Below the pieces are notes generated by a model. That model was not told the origin of the DNA. It saw only the letters and a program-made list of their open reading frames with translations, and ran no database searches. A stretch of DNA of 36,412 bases, taken from IMG/VR virus record IMGVR_UViG_2585427969_000016; one strand, 5' to 3'. Origin of the DNA: a virus (lineage: Duplodnaviria > Heunggongvirae > Uroviricota > Caudoviricetes). The position numbers and the translations under genes are program-made. Below, piece by piece: positions 1-36,412 of the stretch. Numbering within the stretch: position 1 is the stretch's first letter; each line of letters begins with the position of its first letter.

Positions 1-900
1 TTAACGCAACAATGGGCAATCTGGTGGTAATCGACAACGCAACGCCGCCGGAAGTATTTCAATATGAAAGTTTTGTCCGCTCAACGGTTCGCCATCAAGA
101 TTAAAAGTGATTTCGTGTGGGGCTTGTATATCAAACCACGACGAAGCGCCTTCGATAATATTCGGGTTATCTTCGTCAGATTTTAATGTTGATACGAGAG
201 CCGGAAGAATTTCATCGCCGGTAAAAATGCGCAGTTGCAGCAAGCCATCGTTAATTAACGCGTTCGGGCACAATTGCTGACCGCCACCGGCCTGACGCCC
301 GTTACCAATACCAATGACCAGGGCGTCACCTTGCCAGTGAAAGTTTTCACCGCGGATCTCACAACGGTCCGGTTGCAGAGTATCCATGCGCATTAAGCCA
401 TGAATGATGTAAGAGACGCCACCCAGCGCGGCTTTTAATTTTTCCGGCGTTTCTGTGGTAATACGCGTCCCAAATCCGCCTGTCGCCATATTAATAAAAC
501 AGGTTTGTTTGTTGACCTGCGCCATATCTATCGCAATGGCGTCACCGGCAATTGCCAGTTTCAGCGCCTTATCCAGTGCCTCAGGAATCCTTACACTGGT
601 GGCAAAATCATTGGCGGTTCCTAATGGCAAAATTCCTAGCGCGGGTATGTCATCCCCCTCACACTGAATCAACGCCGTAGAAACTTCATTAATGGTGCCA
701 TCGCCACCACCGGCAATCACCGTTGCGACGCCCAACTTCCGGGCCTCCTCTACATATCGTGCGGCATCGCCTTTCTCCCAGGTGACCCGCACATGGATCG
801 TCATTCCTTCCTCACGCAACAGCATAATTGCTTCGCGCAATGGTAAATTGTCAGTACTTTTGCCATTAAGAATCAGTAAGCTGGCGGGAAATTCTGCCAT
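1..900 (-). CDS. yegS: Lipid kinase YegS (host gene, complete)
   Basis: 299-aa ORF with GGDGT diacylglycerol-kinase-type motif; length and sequence match my recollection of E. coli YegS; GC-rich host-like composition. Confidence 0.9.
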
Positions 901-1314: not shown

Positions 1315-1632
1315 ATGAAAAAGATAGCTGCTATATCATTAATTAGTGTTTTTCTTATGTCTGGGTGTGCTGTACATAATGATGAGACAAGTATCGGTAA
1401 ATTTGGTCTTGCATATAAAAGTAATATTCAGCGTAAACTCGATAACCAATACTACACCGAAGCCGAAGCTTCTTTAGCCAGGGGCAGAATTTCTGGTGCA
1501 GAAAATATAGTAAAAAATGATGCAGCTCATTTCTGTGTTACTCAGGGCAAAAAAATGCAGATAGTTGACCTGAAGACAGAAGGTGCAGGATTACATGGCG
1601 TCGCTCGTCTGACATTCAAATGTGGAGAGTGA
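1315..1632 (+). CDS. yegR: Small putative lipoprotein (host gene); 105 aa from the internal ATG of the 125-aa ORF
   Basis: MKK start followed by hydrophobic signal peptide and LMSGC lipobox-like cysteine; position next to yegS matches the recalled E. coli yegR. Confidence 0.6.
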   Translation: MKKIAAISLISVFLMSGCAVHNDETSIGKFGLAYKSNIQRKLDNQYYTEAEASLARGRISGAENIVKNDAAHFCVTQGKKMQIVDLKTEGAGLHGVARLTFKCGE

Positions 1633-1789
1633 GAATATTTTTTGGTAAGCGTCAAACATGCGCGTTCTGGTTGTGCGTAGCCGGAATCTGTACGAGCACG
1701 ATGCCGTTACGTGAAAGGCATCGTGTTATGAAGGGGGATTCTATCGATGTGGTCAATGGAAGACGGTGACCAGGATACGGCTTATGCAT

Positions 1790-1816
1790 AAAAAATAAGC
1801 CCGTGTAAGGGAGATT
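1790..1816. repeat. attL core: 27-bp direct repeat AAAAAATAAGCCCGTGTAAGGGAGATT, identical to attR
   Basis: Exact 27-nt identity with 34880..34906; lies immediately outside the 3' end of the integrase gene. Confidence 0.85.
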
Positions 1817-1895
1817 TAGGGTGTCACCAGTAGGGGCTTTCAACGGTACAATGCGGGTTTGAGCGGCATAAATTACCACTGAAAGCCCTTAAACG

Positions 1896-2909
1896 TTACT
1901 CTACTGTGGACACTGTGTGGACACTCTCGGCCTCAGTACCACCTCTTAGCGGATTAAGAGAAATGGCGTCCTGAAGGTACTCTGGCGCAAAATGAGCGTA
2001 AACCATAGTTTGCTCAATCCGCGTGTGACCTAGTATCCGTTGTAGCGTGATAATACTTCCTCCATTAATCATGAAATGAGTGGCAAAGCTGTGCCTTAGT
2101 GCATGTGTGGCTTGCCCCATTGGCAAATCCGGTTTTATTGCTTTCATTGTTCGTCTGAAGCGAGGGTAATCAGCATCAGGGAATAAAAAACCTCGTTTGT
2201 TATCCGCGATCATTTTGGCAACAGCCTCTGAAATCGGGACGGTGCGTGGTTTGTTTGTTTTCGTTTTAACAAACGTGACGCGGTTATGGATGATATTTTC
2301 TGCTTTCAAACGAGCTGCTTCTCCCCAACGTGCTCCTGTACTCAGGCAAAGAATCGCAATCTTTTTATTGTCGCCGTCAAGTGCTGCAAGCAGTAAGGCA
2401 ATTTCTTCCTGTGTGAGATAGCCTGTTTCTGGTTTTTCCTCCTTAAGCCTCTTTGTCCCTCTGATAGGGTGCTCACCAAAGAATAACTCCGCTTCAATCA
2501 GGGCTGTAAACATGCCGCTAATACATGTTAAATCACGATTGATACTCGAAGGTTTAATACCCTGACTTCTTCGGGTGGCGCAGTACTGGCTGATAAGGGA
2601 TTTCGTGATTTGAAATGCGCATGGGTCATTCGTTATTTTTGTGAAGATTTCAATTTTTCCAAGATTAGATTTCCCATGATCTTCGTGTTTACCCTTTAAA
2701 TCCCACCAGATCTGTGTCAGTTCCGACAGACGTCGTTTGTCTGTTGGTTTTGATAGCCATTCTTTATTGTGGTGGTTGTACAACGTGTATTTTTCGAAAG
2801 CGACAGCTTCGCTTTTCTTATCAAACTTCCTACGGATGCGTTTTCCGTTACGTCCAGTAGGGCGGATGTCCACTTCATATCGACCATCATCGAGTTTTTT
2901 GATTGCCAT
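1896..2909 (-). CDS. int: Tyrosine integrase (P2 Int-like, 337 aa)
   Basis: C-terminal R..HxxR..Y tyrosine-recombinase motifs (ALRHSFATH, HTRIEQTMVYAH); 337 aa like P2 Int; adjacent to attL. Confidence 0.95.
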   Translation of the reverse strand: MAIKKLDDGRYEVDIRPTGRNGKRIRRKFDKKSEAVAFEKYTLYNHHNKEWLSKPTDKRRLSELTQIWWDLKGKHEDHGKSNLGKIEIFTKITNDPCAFQITKSLISQYCATRRSQGIKPSSINRDLTCISGMFTALIEAELFFGEHPIRGTKRLKEEKPETGYLTQEEIALLLAALDGDNKKIAILCLSTGARWGEAARLKAENIIHNRVTFVKTKTNKPRTVPISEAVAKMIADNKRGFLFPDADYPRFRRTMKAIKPDLPMGQATHALRHSFATHFMINGGSIITLQRILGHTRIEQTMVYAHFAPEYLQDAISLNPLRGGTEAESVHTVSTVE

Positions 2910-11558: not shown

Positions 11559-11577
11559 GGCGAGGCGGGGAAAGCAC
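11559..11577. other. cos cohesive-end site (GGCGAGGCGGGGAAAGCAC)
   Basis: Matches the recalled 19-nt P2 cohesive end; located between the post-A variable region and Q as in P2. Confidence 0.7.
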
Positions 11578-24181: not shown

Positions 24182-26500
24182 ATGAGCACAAAATTCAGAA
24201 CCGTTATCACCACTGCCGGTGCAGCAAAGCTGGCAGCGGCAACCGCGCCGGGAGGGCGGAAGGTCAACATTACCACGATGGCCGTAGGGGATGGCGGTGG
24301 TAAATTGCCTGTCCCGGATGCCGGACAGACCGGACTTATTCACGAAGTCTGGCGACATACGCTGAACAAAATCAGCCAGGACAAACGAAACAGTAATTAT
24401 ATTATCGCAGAGCTGGTTATTCCGCCGGAGGTGGGCGGTTTCTGGATGCGTGAGCTTGGCCTGTACGATGATGCGGGAACGTTAATTGCCGTGGCGAACA
24501 TGGCCGAAAGTTATAAGCCAGCTCTTGCCGAAGGCTCAGGGCGTTCGCAGACCTGTCGCATGGTCATCATCGTCAGCAGTGTGGCCTCAGTGGCGCTGAC
24601 CATTGACACCACAACGGTGATGGCGACGCAGGATTACGTTGATGACAAAATTGCAGAGCATGAACAGTCACGACGTCACCCGGACGCCTCGCTGACCGCA
24701 AAAGGTTTTACTCAGTTAAGCAATGCGACCAACAGCACGTCTGAAACACTGGCCGCAACGCCGAAAGCGGTTAAGGCCGCATATGACCTGGCTAACGGGA
24801 AATACACTGCGCAGGATGCCACCACAGCGCGAAAAGGCCTTGTCCAGCTCAGTAGCGCCACCAACAGCACGTCTGAAACGCTCGCCGCAACACCAAAAGC
24901 GGTAAAGGCAGCATATGACCTTGCTAACGGGAAATACACTGCACAGGACGCCACCACAGCGCGAAAAGGTCTTGTCCAGCTCAGTAGCGCCACCAACAGC
25001 GATTCTGAAACGCTTGCCGCAACGCCAAAGGCGGTTAAGACAGCGTATGACCTTGCTAACGGGAAATACACTGCACAGGATGCCACCACAGCGCGAAAAG
25101 GTCTTGTCCAGCTCAGTAGCGCCACCAACAGTGATTCTGAAACGCTTGCCGCAACACCAAAAGCGGTGAAGTCTGCCTATGACAATGCTGAAAAACGTCT
25201 TCAGAAAGATCAGAACGGTGCGGATATTCCGGGAAAGGATACCTTCACGAAAAATATCGGTGCCTGTCGTGCTTATAGCGGCGCTTTGAGCACTGAAGCC
25301 GGAAACTGGACAACCGCTCAGTTTATTGAATGGCTGGATTCCCGTGGTGCATTTAATCATCCGTACTGGATGTGCAAAGGCTCCTGGTCATATGCAAATA
25401 ACAAAATCATTACGGATACCGGATGTGGTGATATCAACCTGGCTGGTTGTGTCGTCGAGGTCATGGGAACAAAATCTGCAATCACTATCCGAGTGACCAC
25501 GCCGACAACATCAAGCGGTGGCGGTACAACCAGCGCGCAATTCACTTACATTAATCATGGGGACGGCTACTCCCCCGGCTGGCGTCGTGACTGGAATCGT
25601 CAGGGCGACTCAATGACCGGAACGATTAATCAGGATGGCGGAAGCCAGAATGCCTATATGTCTACGGCCTTATGTTCAGGCACCAGAGGCGGCAAAAAAT
25701 ATCTCAGAAAGTTTCGTGGTGGAGAAGGAGATACTATCTGGCATGAAACAGTACAGGGCGAGGTAATTCGCTGGGCGACAGGTAATACTGATGCTCGGGA
25801 AGAATTATCACTCAGCTCTGTTTATGGTCTTCGTTCAAGAGGTGAAATTACATCGCTCAGTGCTAATGGTCTGCGCGTTGCTTATGGCAATTATGGATTC
25901 TTTATCAGGAATGATGGCGGCAGCACATATTTAATGCTGACGGCCTCTGGCGATAAATTTGGGACATGGAACGGCTTAAGACCGCTGACTATCAATAACG
26001 CCAATGGCGGAGTGTCAATGGGGCATGGCCTGAGTGTTACAGGTGATATTGTCTCAAGTACCAAAGTACGTGCCGGTAGCGGGAAAAAGTTCACGGTCAG
26101 CAGCAGCAATACATCCACGAAGGAAGCCGCATTCAATTTGTGGGGAAACTCAAGTCGTCCTGTGGTGGCTGAATTAGGTGATGATGCAGGCTGGCATTTT
26201 TACAGTCAGAGAAATACAGATAACAGCATCACTTTTGCTGTTAACGGTCAGGTATCACCATCTAACTATGGCAACTTTGATTCACGCTATGTCCGGGATA
26301 TCCGGCTTGGTGGTGCTGCCACATACAAACCTGCGAACAATGGCATGACATGGACACATCAGGCACCGTCCGGGTGTGTATATTCTGGCATTATTGTTCA
26401 GGATACCGGCTCAAACTCTGCCGATAACATTGGTGGCGTATATTACAGACCGGTGCAGAAATACATTAACGGGACATGGTATAACGTGGCACAGGTATAA
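24182..26500 (+). CDS. H: Tail fibre protein H (772 aa) with conserved N-terminus, four internal 44-aa repeats and a variable C-terminal receptor-binding part
   Basis: N-terminus MSTKFRTVITTAGAAKLAAATAPG as recalled for P2 gpH; about 100 aa longer than P2 H. Confidence 0.92.
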   Translation: MSTKFRTVITTAGAAKLAAATAPGGRKVNITTMAVGDGGGKLPVPDAGQTGLIHEVWRHTLNKISQDKRNSNYIIAELVIPPEVGGFWMRELGLYDDAGTLIAVANMAESYKPALAEGSGRSQTCRMVIIVSSVASVALTIDTTTVMATQDYVDDKIAEHEQSRRHPDASLTAKGFTQLSNATNSTSETLAATPKAVKAAYDLANGKYTAQDATTARKGLVQLSSATNSTSETLAATPKAVKAAYDLANGKYTAQDATTARKGLVQLSSATNSDSETLAATPKAVKTAYDLANGKYTAQDATTARKGLVQLSSATNSDSETLAATPKAVKSAYDNAEKRLQKDQNGADIPGKDTFTKNIGACRAYSGALSTEAGNWTTAQFIEWLDSRGAFNHPYWMCKGSWSYANNKIITDTGCGDINLAGCVVEVMGTKSAITIRVTTPTTSSGGGTTSAQFTYINHGDGYSPGWRRDWNRQGDSMTGTINQDGGSQNAYMSTALCSGTRGGKKYLRKFRGGEGDTIWHETVQGEVIRWATGNTDAREELSLSSVYGLRSRGEITSLSANGLRVAYGNYGFFIRNDGGSTYLMLTASGDKFGTWNGLRPLTINNANGGVSMGHGLSVTGDIVSSTKVRAGSGKKFTVSSSNTSTKEAAFNLWGNSSRPVVAELGDDAGWHFYSQRNTDNSITFAVNGQVSPSNYGNFDSRYVRDIRLGGAATYKPANNGMTWTHQAPSGCVYSGIIVQDTGSNSADNIGGVYYRPVQKYINGTWYNVAQV
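24701..25228 (+). repeat. Four tandem 132-bp (44-codon) repeats inside H, each encoding ..KGLVQLSSATNS(T/D)SETLAATPKAVKAAYDLANGKYTAQDATTAR
   Basis: Period of 132 nt read directly from the sequence, with a few synonymous and missense differences between copies. Confidence 0.9.
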
Positions 26501-29378: not shown

Positions 29379-29897
29379 ATGGCAATGCCGCGCAAACTCA
29401 AGTTAATGAACGTCTTTCTGAACGGCTACAGCTATCAGGGCGTTGCAAAGTCCGTCACGCTGCCAAAACTGACCCGTAAGCTCGAAAACTATCGCGGTGC
29501 GGGGATGAACGGCAGCGCACCGGTAGACCTCGGCCTTGATGACGATGCGCTGTCAATGGAGTGGTCGCTCGGGGGCTTCCCGGATTCGGTTATCTGGGAG
29601 CTTTACGCCGCAACCGGTGTGGATGCCGTGCCGATTCGTTTTGCAGGCTCTTACCAGCGCGACGATACCGGCGAAACGGTGGCCGTCGAAGTGGTCATGC
29701 GTGGACGTCAGAAAGAAATCGACACCGGCGAGGGTAAACAGGGAGAAGACACCGAGTCGAAAATCTCCGTGGTCTGCACCTATTTCCGGCTGACGATGGA
29801 CGGCAAGGAGCTGGTCGAAATCGACACCATCAACATGATTGAGAAGGTGAACGGCGTCGACCGGCTGGAGCAACACCGCCGAAATATCGGCCTGTGA
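29379..29897 (+). CDS. FII: Tail tube protein FII (172 aa)
   Basis: Synteny and length. Confidence 0.93.
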   Translation: MAMPRKLKLMNVFLNGYSYQGVAKSVTLPKLTRKLENYRGAGMNGSAPVDLGLDDDALSMEWSLGGFPDSVIWELYAATGVDAVPIRFAGSYQRDDTGETVAVEVVMRGRQKEIDTGEGKQGEDTESKISVVCTYFRLTMDGKELVEIDTINMIEKVNGVDRLEQHRRNIGL

Positions 29898-30381: not shown

Positions 30382-32821
30382 CAATGTAAAATTACAGGTA
30401 TTGCTCAGGGCTGTTGACCAGGCATCCCGCCCGTTTAAATCCATCCGCACAGCGAGTAAGTCGCTGTCGGGGGATATCCGGGAAACACAAAAATCACTGC
30501 GCGAGCTGAACGGTCACGCATCCCGTATTGAGGGATTTCGCAAGACCAGCGCACAGCTTGCCGTGACTGGTCATGCACTTGAAAAGGCACGGCAGGAAGC
30601 CGAAGCCCTTGCCACACAGTTTAAAAACACTGAACGTCCGACCCGTGCTCAGGCGAAAGTGCTGGAATCCGCAAAGCGTGCGGCGGAGGACTTACAGGCG
30701 AAATATAACCGCCTGACAGATTCCATTAAACGCCAGCAGCGGGAACTGGCCGCTGTGGGAATTAATACCCGCAATCTTGCACATGATGAGCAGGGACTGA
30801 AAAACCGTATCAGTGAAACCACCGCACAGCTTAACCGTCAGCGTGATGCGCTGGCGCGTGTCAGTGCGCAACAGGCAAAACTTAACGCAGTCAAACAGCG
30901 TTATCAGGCCGGAAAGGAACTGGCCGGAAATATGGCCTCAGTGGGCGCTGCCGGTGTGGGGATTGCGGCGGCGGGAACGATGGCCGGTGTTAAGCTGCTG
31001 ATGCCAGGTTATGAGTTTGCGCAGAAAAACTCAGAATTGCAGGCCGTGCTCGGTGTGGCAAAAGACTCCGCCGAAATGGCTGCACTACGCAAGCAGGCGC
31101 GCCAGCTCGGCGACAACACCGCCGCTTCGGCGGATGATGCTGCCGGTGCACAGATTATTATCGCGAAAGCCGGTGGGGATGTTGATGCCATTCAGGCGGC
31201 AACGCCGGTCACGCTGAATATGGCGCTGGCGAACCGTCGCACGATGGAAGAAAACGCCGCCCTGCTGATGGGGATGAAATCCGCCTTTCAGCTTTCAAAC
31301 GATAAGGTCGCTCATATCGGGGATGTTCTCTCCATGACGATGAACAAAACCGCCGCCGATTTTGACGGCATGAGCGATGCGCTGACCTATGCCGCACCTG
31401 TGGCAAAAAATGCCGGTGTCAGCATTGAAGAAACCGCCGCAATGGTCGGGGCACTGCATGATGCAAAAATTACCGGTTCAATGGCGGGGACGGGAAGCCG
31501 TGCCGTGTTAAGCCGCCTGCAGGCACCGACGGGAAAAGCATGGGATGCACTCAAAGAGCTTGGCGTGAAAACCTCAGACAGTAAAGGGAATACCCGACCA
31601 GTATTTACCATTCTGAAAGAAATGCAGGCCAGTTTTGAGAAAAACCGGCTCGGTACTGCCCAGCAGGCTGAATACATGAAAACCATTTTCGGGGAGGAGG
31701 CCAGCTCAGCCGCCGCCGTGCTGATGGCTGCCGCCTCAACCGGAAAGCTGGACAAACTGACCGCTGCGTTTAAAGCCTCAGACGGGAAGACCGCCGAGCT
31801 GGTAAATATCATGCAGGACAACCTAGGCGGTGACTTTAAAGAGTTTCAGTCCGCTTATGAGGCGGTGGGGACTGACCTGTTTGACCAGCAGGAAGGCGCG
31901 CTGCGTAAGCTCACACAGACGGCCACAAAGTATGTGTTAAAACTCGACGGCTGGATCCAGAAAAACAAATCACTGGCGTCAACCATCGGCCTCATTGTCG
32001 GTGGCGCACTGGCGCTGACTGGCGTCATCGGTGCCATTGGCCTCGTAGCCTGGCCGGTTATCACCGGCATCAATGCCATTATCGCGGCAGCAGGCGCAAT
32101 GGGGGCAATCTTCACGACGATTGGCAGTGCTGTTATGACGGCCATCGGGGCAATTAGCTGGCCGGTTGTGGCTGTGGTGGCCGCCATTGTCGCCGGGGCG
32201 TTGCTTATTCGTAAATACTGGGAGCCTGTCAGCGCATTCTTTGGCGGTGTGGTGGAAGGGCTGAAAGCGGCATTTGCGCCGGTGGGGGAACTGTTCACGC
32301 CACTTAAGCCGGTGTTTGACTGGCTGGGCGAAAAGTTACAGGCCGCGTGGCAGTGGTTTAAAAACCTGATTGCCCCGGTCAAAGCCACCCAGGACACCCT
32401 GAACCGTTGCCGTGATACTGGCGTCATGTTCGGGCAGGCACTGGCTGACGCGCTGATGCTGCCGCTTAATGCGTTCAACAAACTGCGCAGCGGTATTGAC
32501 TGGGTACTGGAAAAACTCGGCGTCATCAACAAAGAGTCTGACGCACTTGACCAGACTGCCGCCAGAACTCATGCCGCCACGTATGGCACCGGTGGTTATA
32601 TTCCGGCGACCAGCTCTTATGCAGGCTATCAGGCTTATCAGCCGGTCACGGCACCGGCTGGCCGCTCTTATGTGGACCAGAGTAAAAACGAATATCACAT
32701 CAGCCTGACGGGTGGTACTGCGCCGGGGACACAGCTTGACCGCCAGTTACAGGATGCGCTCGAAAAATACGAGCGGGATAAACGTGCGCGCGCCCGTGCC
32801 AGCATGATGCATGACGGTTAA
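30374..32821 (+). CDS. T: Tail tape measure protein T (815 aa)
   Basis: Length, helical/Ala-rich composition, synteny. Confidence 0.93.
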   Translation: MSNNVKLQVLLRAVDQASRPFKSIRTASKSLSGDIRETQKSLRELNGHASRIEGFRKTSAQLAVTGHALEKARQEAEALATQFKNTERPTRAQAKVLESAKRAAEDLQAKYNRLTDSIKRQQRELAAVGINTRNLAHDEQGLKNRISETTAQLNRQRDALARVSAQQAKLNAVKQRYQAGKELAGNMASVGAAGVGIAAAGTMAGVKLLMPGYEFAQKNSELQAVLGVAKDSAEMAALRKQARQLGDNTAASADDAAGAQIIIAKAGGDVDAIQAATPVTLNMALANRRTMEENAALLMGMKSAFQLSNDKVAHIGDVLSMTMNKTAADFDGMSDALTYAAPVAKNAGVSIEETAAMVGALHDAKITGSMAGTGSRAVLSRLQAPTGKAWDALKELGVKTSDSKGNTRPVFTILKEMQASFEKNRLGTAQQAEYMKTIFGEEASSAAAVLMAAASTGKLDKLTAAFKASDGKTAELVNIMQDNLGGDFKEFQSAYEAVGTDLFDQQEGALRKLTQTATKYVLKLDGWIQKNKSLASTIGLIVGGALALTGVIGAIGLVAWPVITGINAIIAAAGAMGAIFTTIGSAVMTAIGAISWPVVAVVAAIVAGALLIRKYWEPVSAFFGGVVEGLKAAFAPVGELFTPLKPVFDWLGEKLQAAWQWFKNLIAPVKATQDTLNRCRDTGVMFGQALADALMLPLNAFNKLRSGIDWVLEKLGVINKESDALDQTAARTHAATYGTGGYIPATSSYAGYQAYQPVTAPAGRSYVDQSKNEYHISLTGGTAPGTQLDRQLQDALEKYERDKRARARASMMHDG

Positions 32822-34478: not shown

Positions 34479-34559
34479 TGTAATTTATTTATCTGTTTGT
34501 TTTGTAAGGATAAATTAACTAAAATGGCACCATCAACAAAACCGGAAGAGGTGCTCGCG

Positions 34560-34778
34560 ATGTTTCATTGTCCTTTATGCCAGCATGCCGCACATGCGCG
34601 TACAAGTCGCTATATCACTGACACGACAAAAGAGCGTTATCACCAGTGTCAGAACGTGAATTGCAGCGCCACGTTCATCACCTATGAGTCGGTACAGCGA
34701 TACATCGTGAAGCCGGGAGAAGTCCACGCCGTAAGGCCACACCCGTTGCCGTCAGGGCAGCAAATTATGTGGATGTAA
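34560..34778 (+). CDS. ogr: Ogr late-gene transcription activator (72 aa C4 zinc finger); the listed ORF starts earlier at 34497
   Basis: MFHCPLCQHAAHARTSRYITDTTKERYHQCQNVNCSATF.. matches recalled P2 Ogr; GGAAGAGG Shine-Dalgarno before the internal ATG. Confidence 0.9.
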   Translation: MFHCPLCQHAAHARTSRYITDTTKERYHQCQNVNCSATFITYESVQRYIVKPGEVHAVRPHPLPSGQQIMWM

Positions 34779-34790
34779 TTACAAACAGAA

Positions 34791-34816
34791 AGCCCCTCAG
34801 TCGAGGGGCTTTTTTG
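34791..34816 (+). terminator. Rho-independent terminator after ogr (AGCCCCTC-AGTC-GAGGGGCT followed by TTTTTT)
   Basis: 8-bp GC stem and T6 tail read from sequence. Confidence 0.8.
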
Positions 34817-34879
34817 TCGATGTGGTCAATGTGTGGACGTGACCAGAAATAAATCCTTTTATTTCATTGTATTACGCGT

Positions 34880-34906
34880 AAAAAATAAGCCCGTGTAAGG
34901 GAGATT
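34880..34906. repeat. attR core: 27-bp direct repeat identical to attL; also the 3' terminator hairpin of cyaR
   Basis: Exact identity with 1790..1816. Confidence 0.85.
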
Positions 34907-34966
34907 ACACAGGCTAAGGAGGTGGTTCCTGGTACAGCTAGCATTTTATGGGTTATGTTTTTCAGC
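34880..34966 (-). ncRNA. cyaR: CyaR (RyeE) Hfq-dependent sRNA; its 3' end is the phage attachment core
   Basis: Reverse complement reads GCUGAAAAACAUAACCCAUAAAAUGCUAGCUGUACCAGGAACCACCUCCUUAGCCUGUGUAAUCUCCCUUACACGGGCUUAUUUUUU, matching my recollection of E. coli CyaR, with an intrinsic terminator at the 3' end. Confidence 0.8.
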
Positions 34967-35003
34967 GAAACGGATGATAACCTTAATAAATGCAGCTGTA
35001 TGT

Positions 35004-35025
35004 GATCGGTTTCTAAGAATTTTCC
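35004..35025 (-). promoter_or_regulatory. Candidate CRP site in the cyaR promoter region (one consensus TGTGA half-site)
   Basis: TGTGATCGGTTTCTAA about 40-60 bp upstream of the cyaR 5' end; cyaR is known to be cAMP-CRP activated. Confidence 0.4.
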
Positions 35026-35050
35026 ATCCGGGAAAAATAATCGAAATTAA

Positions 35051-36412
35051 TCACTTACCGTGGGGGTTACGCGTGGTTTCCCCGGAGAAATTACGCATCA
35101 GGAGCGCGTAATTTAGCTCAAGATCCTGCGGGACCGGGAGCCACACAGTATAACCATCGCCTGGTGCGACCGGCATAGCTTCACCTTTGGCGTTTTCCAT
35201 GTGCTCAAGGGTAAAGTTAATGTTGCCTTGCGGCGTCATCAGCTCAAGGCTGTCACCAACGGAGAATTTATTTTTCACCGCTACCGCCGCGAGGTCGCCC
35301 TTGCGCTCACCGGTAAACTCACCAACAAACTGCTGGCGGTCAGAAACTGAATAACCGTATTCGTAGTTCTGATAATCGTCGTGAGTATGACGACGCAGGA
35401 AACCTTCGGTATAGCCACGATGCGCCAGACCTTCCAGAGTTTCCAGCAGGCTGGTATCGAATGGTTTTCCCGCAGCTGCGTCATCGATAGCTTTACGGTA
35501 AACCTGCGCGGTGCGTGCGCAATAGTAGAAAGATTTGGTACGGCCTTCGATTTTCAGCGAATGCACTCCCATTTTGGTCAGGCGTTCTACATGGGCGATG
35601 GCGCGCAGATCTTTCGAGTTCATGATGTAAGTGCCGTGCTCATCTTCAAACGCGGTCATATACTCGCCCGGACGCTGGGCCTCTTCGATCATAAACACTT
35701 TGTCGGTTGGTGCGCCGATACCCAGCGTCGGCTCAACATTTTGCACCGGAATCGGCTCGTACTTGTGTACGATGTTGCCAACGTCATCTTCTTTCCCTTC
35801 CTGGACGTTGTATTCCCAGCGGCAGGCGTTGGTGCAGGTGCCCTGGTTCGGGTCGCGCTTGTTGATATAGCCAGAGAGCAGGCAGCGACCGGAGTAGGCC
35901 ATGCACAGCGCGCCGTGAACGAAGATCTCTACCTCCATATCCGGCACCTGATTGCGGATCTCTTCAATCTCTTCCAGCGACAGCTCGCGAGAGAGGATCA
36001 CGCGGGTCAGGCCCATTTGCTGCCAGAATTTCACCGTCGCCCAGTTCACGGCGTTAGCCTGTACCGAGAGATGGATCGGCATTTCAGGGAAGTGCTCACG
36101 CACCAGCATAATCAGCCCTGGATCGGACATAATCAGCGCATCCGGCCCCATTTCCACCACCGGTTTCAGGTCACGGATAAAGGTTTTCAGCTTGGCGTTG
36201 TGCGGTGCAATGTTGACCACGACATAAAACTTTTTCCCCAGCGCGTGGGCTTCATTGATGCCGAGCTGGAGATTTTCGTGGTTAAATTCGTTGTTGCGCA
36301 CACGCAGGGAGTAACGCGGCTGGCCCGCATAAACAGCATCTGCGCCATAAGCGAAAGCGTAACGCATATTTTTCAGCGTTCCCGCCGGGGAAAGGAGTTC
36401 CGGTTTAAACAT
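35051..36412 (-). CDS. yegQ: U32-family peptidase-like protein YegQ (TrhP, tRNA hydroxylation), complete; start codon at the window edge
   Basis: 453-aa ORF; length and sequence match my recollection of E. coli YegQ. Confidence 0.88.
   Translation of the reverse strand: MFKPELLSPAGTLKNMRYAFAYGADAVYAGQPRYSLRVRNNEFNHENLQLGINEAHALGKKFYVVVNIAPHNAKLKTFIRDLKPVVEMGPDALIMSDPGLIMLVREHFPEMPIHLSVQANAVNWATVKFWQQMGLTRVILSRELSLEEIEEIRNQVPDMEVEIFVHGALCMAYSGRCLLSGYINKRDPNQGTCTNACRWEYNVQEGKEDDVGNIVHKYEPIPVQNVEPTLGIGAPTDKVFMIEEAQRPGEYMTAFEDEHGTYIMNSKDLRAIAHVERLTKMGVHSLKIEGRTKSFYYCARTAQVYRKAIDDAAAGKPFDTSLLETLEGLAHRGYTEGFLRRHTHDDYQNYEYGYSVSDRQQFVGEFTGERKGDLAAVAVKNKFSVGDSLELMTPQGNINFTLEHMENAKGEAMPVAPGDGYTVWLPVPQDLELNYALLMRNFSGETTRNPHGK

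Follow-up and report, generated by a model that had tools for sequence, protein, structure and literature searches.

This locus raises the question of why a sequence resembling the P arm of a P2-type attachment site is found in bacterial DNA, just outside the left end of a prophage. The stretch of DNA analysed (hereafter the window) is 36,412 nt long, comes from IMG/VR record IMGVR_UViG_2585427969_000016 and contains a complete P2-type prophage with the cos sequence GGCGAGGCGGGGAAAGCAC at 11559. The resident prophage is bounded by identical 27-bp cores AAAAAATAAGCCCGTGTAAGGGAGATT at 1790–1816 and 34880–34906, and its genes D and ogr end at 34778. The attachment core of P2 is the terminator of the small RNA gene cyaR, and in E. 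coli ryeE/cyaR is already on record as a target of phages (Bobay et al. 2013, PMC3603311). The main features are as follows:

1–900, minus strand: yegS, lipid kinase, host gene (ORF; annotated as yegS in E. coli records)
1315–1632, plus strand: yegR, small lipoprotein gene (PF27694; ORF), lying inside the insert described below
1726–1789, plus strand: putative fossil P arm, the block in question (repeats, alignment, arm profile and P2 record; seen in unoccupied sites)
1790–1816, unstranded: 27-bp att core, attL of the resident prophage, identical to 34880–34906 and to the P2 attP core
1817–2909, minus strand: P' arm and int of the resident prophage (int at 1896–2909)
34497–34778, plus strand: ogr of the resident prophage (homologous to P2 ogr)
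34789–34881, plus strand: true P arm of the resident prophage (protein_bind features of the P2 record transferred by alignment)
34880–34906, unstranded: attR core, the 3' half of the cyaR terminator, identical to the attL core
34883–34968, minus strand: cyaR (RyeE) sRNA gene (Rfam RF00112, 100.7 bits, E = 3.5e-19)
35051–36412, minus strand: yegQ/trhP, host gene, right flank (ORF and empty-site comparison)

The true P arm is composed, in this order, of the ogr/F-operon terminator (34789–34812), the Int P-arm site (34817–34844) and the IHF site (34848–34881). Its Int repeats occupy 34821–34828 and 34832–34839, and the Int arm repeats TGTGGACA of the resident P' arm occupy 1905–1912 and 1916–1923. 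In the P2 GenBank record, the segment 24293–24320, equivalent to window 34817–34844, is annotated as the Int P-arm binding site. The initial annotation had placed a diverged copy of the phage P arm on the chromosomal side of attL, and this is borne out: the block aligned with the annotated Int site, host-side positions 1744–1771 matching it in 22 of 28 positions, with 15 of 15 exact in one run. A repeat search of the window returned two pairs, 1730–1773 with 34803–34846 (44 nt, 73% identity, ungapped) and 1782–1816 with 34872–34906 (35 nt, 94%). The pairs are offset by 17 nt, and therefore one indel lies between the block and the core. The similarity is not confined to the 27-bp core and extends about 64 nt past it.

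The top local alignment, TCGATGTGGTCAATG-GAAGACGGTGACCAG against TCGATGTGGTCAATGTGTGGAC-GTGACCAG, has a score of 38. Shuffled sequences gave 14.8 ± 2.3, and none of the 2000 shuffles reached this value. The 15-mer TCGATGTGGTCAATG is found in the window at 1744 and 34817 only, even with two mismatches allowed (expected number 0.11). Both results speak against a chance resemblance, that is, a 15-mer and an 8-mer that happen to occur in the host flank. However, when gaps are allowed, a score of 38 is reached elsewhere in the 36 kb by 6 of 2921 random 157-nt pieces of the window, which include a coding stretch near 29685 and pieces overlapping the P arm itself. This unrelated coding DNA (about 29685–29720, GTCGAAGTGGTCATGCGTGGACGTCAGAAAGAAATC) scores 43 against the P arm, above the host-flank block; its resemblance is taken as chance and calibrates the trust to be placed in score alone. 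The E-value obtained with an arm profile, built from 13 P arms of P2-like prophages at cyaR, was likewise modest: the profile matches the E. coli flank at 1739–1758 (E = 0.038 in roughly 65 kb of flanking sequence), and this flank ranks third of about 108. Taken by its letters alone, the block would thus be only moderately significant, and its significance rests on position and comparative data, because a gapped score of 38 is not unique. With respect to the core, the match has the expected side and order of elements and almost the expected spacing; it ends an insertion whose start is a copy of the core; and independent remnants in other genera occupy the same site with the same layout (see below). 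With these points against it, coincidence is a very unlikely source of the block.

The order of elements within the block, namely a terminator-like stretch, an Int site, a shortened IHF region, TTAYGCRT and the core, follows that of the true P arm, and 18 nt separate the end of the match from the core, its side and strand being those of the true arm. Int repeat 1, TGTGGTCA, is intact at 1748–1755. Repeat 2, GGAAGACG, is degenerate (5/8) and shifted by 1 nt, which gives a 10-nt spacing, and the IHF region has suffered a 17-nt deletion and retains little identity to the P2 footprint (window 34848–34881). P2-type arms carry at least two direct repeats with the consensus tgTGGaCa, about 11 nt apart (PMC3448106). 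The true arms of the resident prophage possess such pairs (34821/34832 and 1905/1916), whereas the block has one intact repeat of the two. Next to the core, positions 1782–1789 read TTATGCAT, their phage counterpart being TTACGCGT. Hence, the block shares with the P arm of P2 attP the 15-mer with repeat 1, GTGACC(AG) after repeat 2, the orientation and TTAYGCRT, and differs from it in repeat 2, in the IHF deletion, in an unrecognisable terminator and in being host DNA of unoccupied strains.

One more structure adjoins the block on the left:

1697–1725, unstranded: near-perfect 9-bp inverted repeat, CACGATGCC...GGCATCGTG (opposite-strand self-match)

This is possibly a decayed terminator that formerly preceded the P arm; it is followed by no T run and was not called by the terminator scan. 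In strain EC9682 (L002), one change keeps a pair of the inverted repeat as a G–T wobble and another breaks a loop-proximal pair, while in the vB_EcoM-720R8 record (L005) only the wobble change is present.

Comparison with other strains at the locus revealed the block in unoccupied sites. A synthetic empty site of 910 nt was made by joining 1301–1816 to 34907–35300. It was found in one place in 4,565 of 5,426 complete E. coli genomes, a place joining pieces up to about 955 nt apart and the count including short remnants. Genome H1 is 100% identical to the synthetic site over all 910 nt, and the segment 880–1816 is present at a coverage of at least 80% in 5,326 of the 5,426 genomes. The block belongs to the empty site and is not specific to the strain.

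These data bear on the sources proposed in the initial annotation, namely a decayed tandem prophage or an earlier occupancy of the site in this strain, and the ogrK/yegZ remnant of K-12. A recent strain-level event of either kind would agree with the short P2 remnants that strains of the K-12 and A134_1EC types carry at the locus. However, the block resides in the unoccupied attB of thousands of E. coli genomes, which leaves no room for the tandem prophage. The K-12 source does not hold either: in K-12-type strains the order is yegR, block, AAAAAAATAAGCCCGTGTA, 3' end of gene D, ogrK, true P arm, full core and cyaR, so that the block is accompanied by the D'-ogrK remnant, which begins to its right after a partial core and is a separate, younger structure. 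A K-12-type D'/ogrK segment was also sought between yegR and the attL core of the window, where 157 bp were found, containing neither ogr nor D. A tandem (double) P2 lysogen was rejected as well, the left flank being yegS–yegR host DNA identical to that of empty sites. The probability of a recent event is negligible. Of the previous P2-like insertion suggested earlier, the remnant stands, whereas the proposals as to which remnant it is and when it arose do not.

The K-12 remnant at the cyaR locus has long been known; a cryptic P2 remnant of K-12 at locI (yegZ = D', ogrK, attR) was reportedly described by Barreiro and Haggard-Ljungquist in 1992. The composite attB of E. coli corresponds to the site that earlier work on P2 named locI. 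The K-12 remnant is similar to the block in locus and in kind, as a deletion remnant that keeps a P2-like attR end. It is, however, recent, about 630 bp long, near-identical to P2 and present in some strains only, whereas the block is older, far more decayed, devoid of ogr and D and nearly universal in E. coli.

Several variations of the locus were observed in passing. The two short P2 remnants, of the K-12 type (L001 807) and of A134_1EC (L335 6921), have one left breakpoint in common, inside the attL core after AAAAAAATAAGCCCGTGTA (CCCGTGTA). The K-12-type remnant joins it to the 3' part of D (window 34269) and the A134_1EC remnant to a fragment of tail gene I (window 23852). Aligned in register with the 27-bp core, the two right-hand breakpoint sequences of the intact prophage agree with it at 14/27 and 13/27 positions, against about 6.8 ± 2.3 by chance; this is a hint that Int may have produced the deletions, acting on attL and on pseudo-cores inside the prophage. 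In the unoccupied site of strain ESY001 (L139), the 8 nt left of the core read TTACGCGT, as at window 34872–34879, in place of the usual host version TTATGCAT, which may be a footprint of a past integration–excision cycle, or of conversion. IS1 insertions were encountered in the yegS–yegR interval of H83, H84, H123 and strain 30EVA2 (L148). In 30EVA2, IS1 abuts a truncated portal gene, so that this strain has lost yegR together with the left part of a prophage. Some E. coli lineages carry a 170-bp AT-rich insertion right after the yegR stop codon (window 1636/1637). Its sequence was examined in EC9682 (L002 638–807) and in the vB_EcoM-720R8 record (L005), and it appears as two-piece matches in several genomes, e.g., that of an O25b:H4-ST131 strain (H102).

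In order to see the locus beyond E. coli, a cyaR-anchored scan was carried out with one genome per species, giving 120 loci. Homologues of yegS adjoin cyaR in most Enterobacteriaceae, and the yegS start codon marks the beginning of the ancestral yegS–cyaR spacer. In most genera, yegS starts about 80–100 bp from the core and the spacer has no P-arm similarity. The Escherichia outgroup was Escherichia sp. E1V33 (L034) alone. In E1V33, yegS is followed by 86 bp, the core and cyaR, and yegR is absent; its yegQ and yegS share 93% and 85% DNA identity, respectively, with those of the window. The window aligns with the E1V33 spacer from yegS to 987 and into AAAAAATCAG (988–997), and then diverges until the core at 1790. 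The left part of the locus is composed of:

901–987, unstranded: ancestral B arm, host spacer that originally separated yegS from the cyaR terminator (colinear with E1V33)
988–1014, unstranded: decayed left core copy AAAAAATCAGTTCAAGTATAGAGGATT, the putative fossil attL core (19/27 identical to the core)
1015–1314, unstranded: AT-rich interior of the insert (GC 31–40%; absent from E1V33; no homologue detected)

The E1V33 counterpart of 901–987 runs directly into the core, whereas E. coli carries about 775–800 bp of extra AT-rich DNA with yegR before the block and the intact core. The segment 998–1789 is absent from E1V33 and represents an insertion at the core. Core repeats stand at both ends of it, decayed at 988–1014 and intact at 1790–1816. 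In the left copy, the first 10 nt match at 9/10 and the remaining 17 nt at 9/17 (P = 0.02). Positions 11–70 of the left end, placed in register with the resident attL (core and P' arm), match at 28/60 against 15.1 ± 3.3, a value reached by 0.02% of registers (empirical p about 2e-4). When 998–1254 was aligned with the P' arm with gaps, 196 of 1000 shuffles reached the score, and the in-register test is the only significant one. A search of 960–1260 against phage records gave no match at the DNA or protein level; likewise, no phage or element genes were recognised inside the insert, and YegR has no match among phage proteins. The extra DNA at the att core, the left core copy, and the stub with the right core together form a pattern typical of site-specific integration and later decay.

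The layout of a partial left core, an insert and a full core recurs independently in other genera. Their yegS–cyaR inserts are 0.6–4 kb long, with a partial core about 78–93 nt after the yegS start codon; the left core copies are identical to the core at 23/27 positions in L014, L035 and L118, at 18/27 in L098 and at 16/27 in the L013 type. Loci with P2-like prophages have a conserved P arm, TCGATGTGGTCAATGTGTGGACAT...GAAATAAATCCTTTTATTTCA. The inserts of Buttiauxella (L046) and Citrobacter (L021) contain a good P arm without ogr and D, and that of Salmonella diarizonae (L066) contains a decayed one. Inserts in the yegS–cyaR interval were observed at L013, L014, L035, L046, L021, L056, L061, L066, L081, L087, L098, L118 and L120; the majority start with a partial core, and some do not resemble P2-like elements. 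The interval appears as an integration site that has been repeatedly used and repeatedly eroded across Enterobacteriaceae. Small RNA and tRNA genes are integration hot spots with arrays of degraded elements, here with the cyaR terminator as the core. Unlike the remnants at other hot spots, the E. coli remnant is fixed across the species and includes an annotated host gene, yegR.

We consider it likely that an element with a P2-type P arm once integrated at cyaR and that the block is its fossil, now found throughout the species. The notion of a leftover from an earlier insertion at the att site, voiced in the initial annotation, remains the best explanation, as judged from the comparison with the outgroup and of the core copies. 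Some ancestor of E. coli would have received an ancient element with a P2-type attP in the cyaR terminator and would later have lost nearly all of it; a single deletion extending from the attL core to just past ogr would give the present structure. Its remains would be the left core (988–1014), about 710 bp of the interior with yegR (1015–1725), the stub (1726–1789) and the right core (1790–1816), the latter being intact because it is the terminator of cyaR. In unoccupied strains, 1790–1816 is the attB core and, at the same time, would be the right-hand core of the fossil. The resident prophage would have integrated into this right-hand core, and for this reason a diverged P arm would lie just outside attL. 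The host attachment site used by P2 here is thus probably itself a fossil prophage junction. About 64 nt and the geometry of the att site suggest that the element was P2-like.

The same resemblance could have arisen in the reverse direction if an ancestor of P2 had taken up the E. coli flank by aberrant excision, which would make the P arm host-derived. Judging from excision geometry, an aberrantly excised left flank would indeed land at the position of the P arm. However, prophages of Citrobacter, Enterobacter, Buttiauxella and other genera have conserved TGTGGWCR repeats and a conserved IHF region in their P arms, and neither is present in the flanks of these hosts. Moreover, TGTGGWCR repeats recur in the P' arm and represent the P2-type Int arm consensus (PMC3448106), and it is the host copy that is degenerate, with repeat 2 and the IHF site lost. 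This direction is extremely unlikely. As an ordinary molecular fossil, the block would belong to a kind of feature already known, since prophage remnants are common at att sites. In the literature search, the yegR-containing interval was nowhere described as a fossil with a P-arm stub; older P2 papers lay outside the scope of this search, and a prior description is possible.

The position of yegR relative to the fossil P arm is that of the cargo slot between ogr and the P arm in intact prophages elsewhere. P2-like prophages at cyaR in Citrobacter youngae and its relatives have an AT-rich slot of 0.5–1.05 kb there, and P2 and the resident prophage have nothing in it. The slots observed (L058 4688–5737, L070 3312–3902 and L075 7167–7661) have a GC-content of 39–42% and contain small minus-strand ORFs of 201, 143 (with a signal-peptide-like N-terminus) and 60 aa. 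By this analogy, yegR is possibly former cargo that the element carried. The homology of yegR with yegR-like genes elsewhere stops exactly at the ends of the ORF. Distant homologues occur in Enterobacter within an island rich in IS elements, and also beside mug/rpoD or close to glsA, none of these places being in a phage. A search for yegR as demonstrable phage cargo was unsuccessful: tblastn against phages gave flank artefacts only, and a scan of IMG/VR with a YegR profile gave only E. coli flanks among the 80 matches listed.

A phage bearing the host version of the block was also sought, and the only records obtained were those that include host flank. The host version is present in the record of vB_EcoM-720R8, and that of "Phage TP" is the K-12-type remnant. 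An IMG/VR scan for GATGTGGTCAATGGAAGAC gave matches mostly near contig ends, and the contigs checked were E. coli flanks of predicted prophages. A living member of Peduoviridae with a yegR-family gene in the slot between ogr and the P arm, or with the P arm TCGATGTGGTCAATGGAAGACGG, would prove both the cargo and the ancestry.

The DNA following yegR contains one further candidate:

1637–1685, plus strand: segment similar to phage 186 DNA before the right cos end (49 nt, 79.6% identity)

It matches 186 positions 30517–30565 with a weak E-value of 0.01 against 2.3 Gb of phage records. No other viral contig in IMG/VR extends its 16-nt seed, and the segment is missing from the pre-cos region of the resident prophage. 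Given the weak E-value and the lack of corroboration in IMG/VR, it is at most a weak candidate for a cos-proximal remnant.

The present state of the stub was assessed by sequence variation among 13 diverse E. coli sequences. The non-coding insert has 13–30% variable sites, compared with 3.4% in the ancestral arm (3/87 sites at 901–987) and 8.5% in yegR; in the AT-rich interior (1015–1314), 21–24% of sites vary. The polymorphism of 988–1314 is unusually high for E. coli, with 21–30% of sites variable in the 13 strains and length differences of 8–9 nt. The block is variable at 5 of 31 sites and is no more conserved than its neighbours. Its central 25 nt, TCTATCGATGTGGTCAATGGAAGAC, have one variable site in the 13 strains where about four are expected, a deficit that is not significant (Poisson P about 0.07) but may reflect weak constraint.

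The stub is most likely inert now, because only one Int repeat is intact, the other is both degenerate and displaced, and most of the IHF site is gone. A fossil block could still work as a B-arm Int site, affecting integration or excision or giving rise to aberrant deletions. The intact repeat 1, the near-invariance of the central 25 nt and the single breakpoint inside the attL core shared by two different remnants would be in accord with such a function, as would the preference of P2 for locI in E. coli C. On the other hand, the deficit of variation falls short of significance, the block as a whole is as variable as its surroundings, and two components that attP requires, repeat 2 and the IHF site, are lost. 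In addition, it is normally the core by itself that is credited with attB function in this family (PMC3448106). Retained function is unlikely. If P2 Int does still recognise the fossil site, the preferred P2 site would be a hybrid, an "attB with an arm", which could bias site choice or excision efficiency or could have seeded Int-mediated deletions such as those behind the remnants of K-12 and A134_1EC. A corollary would be that yegR, although regarded as a chromosomal gene of E. coli, came in as cargo in the ogr–attP slot of a P2-like phage.

If the block is a fossil, the classic P2 site can be reread, the B arm of E. coli being the stub of an older element with yegR inside rather than a native spacer. 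For phage biology, this would provide a testable case in which a preferred attachment site has, on its bacterial side, a predicted arm-type site for the integrase. For annotation, similarity outside of the att core can mislead the calling of prophage boundaries. At this locus, predicted boundaries routinely run past attL into host DNA; among the IMG/VR contigs L152–L415, many "viral" contigs of P2-like prophages of E. coli begin or end in yegR and the fossil arm. Within the resident prophage, the late region at 24700–25189 contains three tandem copies of a 132-nt unit with 85–87% identity, which are probably situated within a tail-fibre-type gene.
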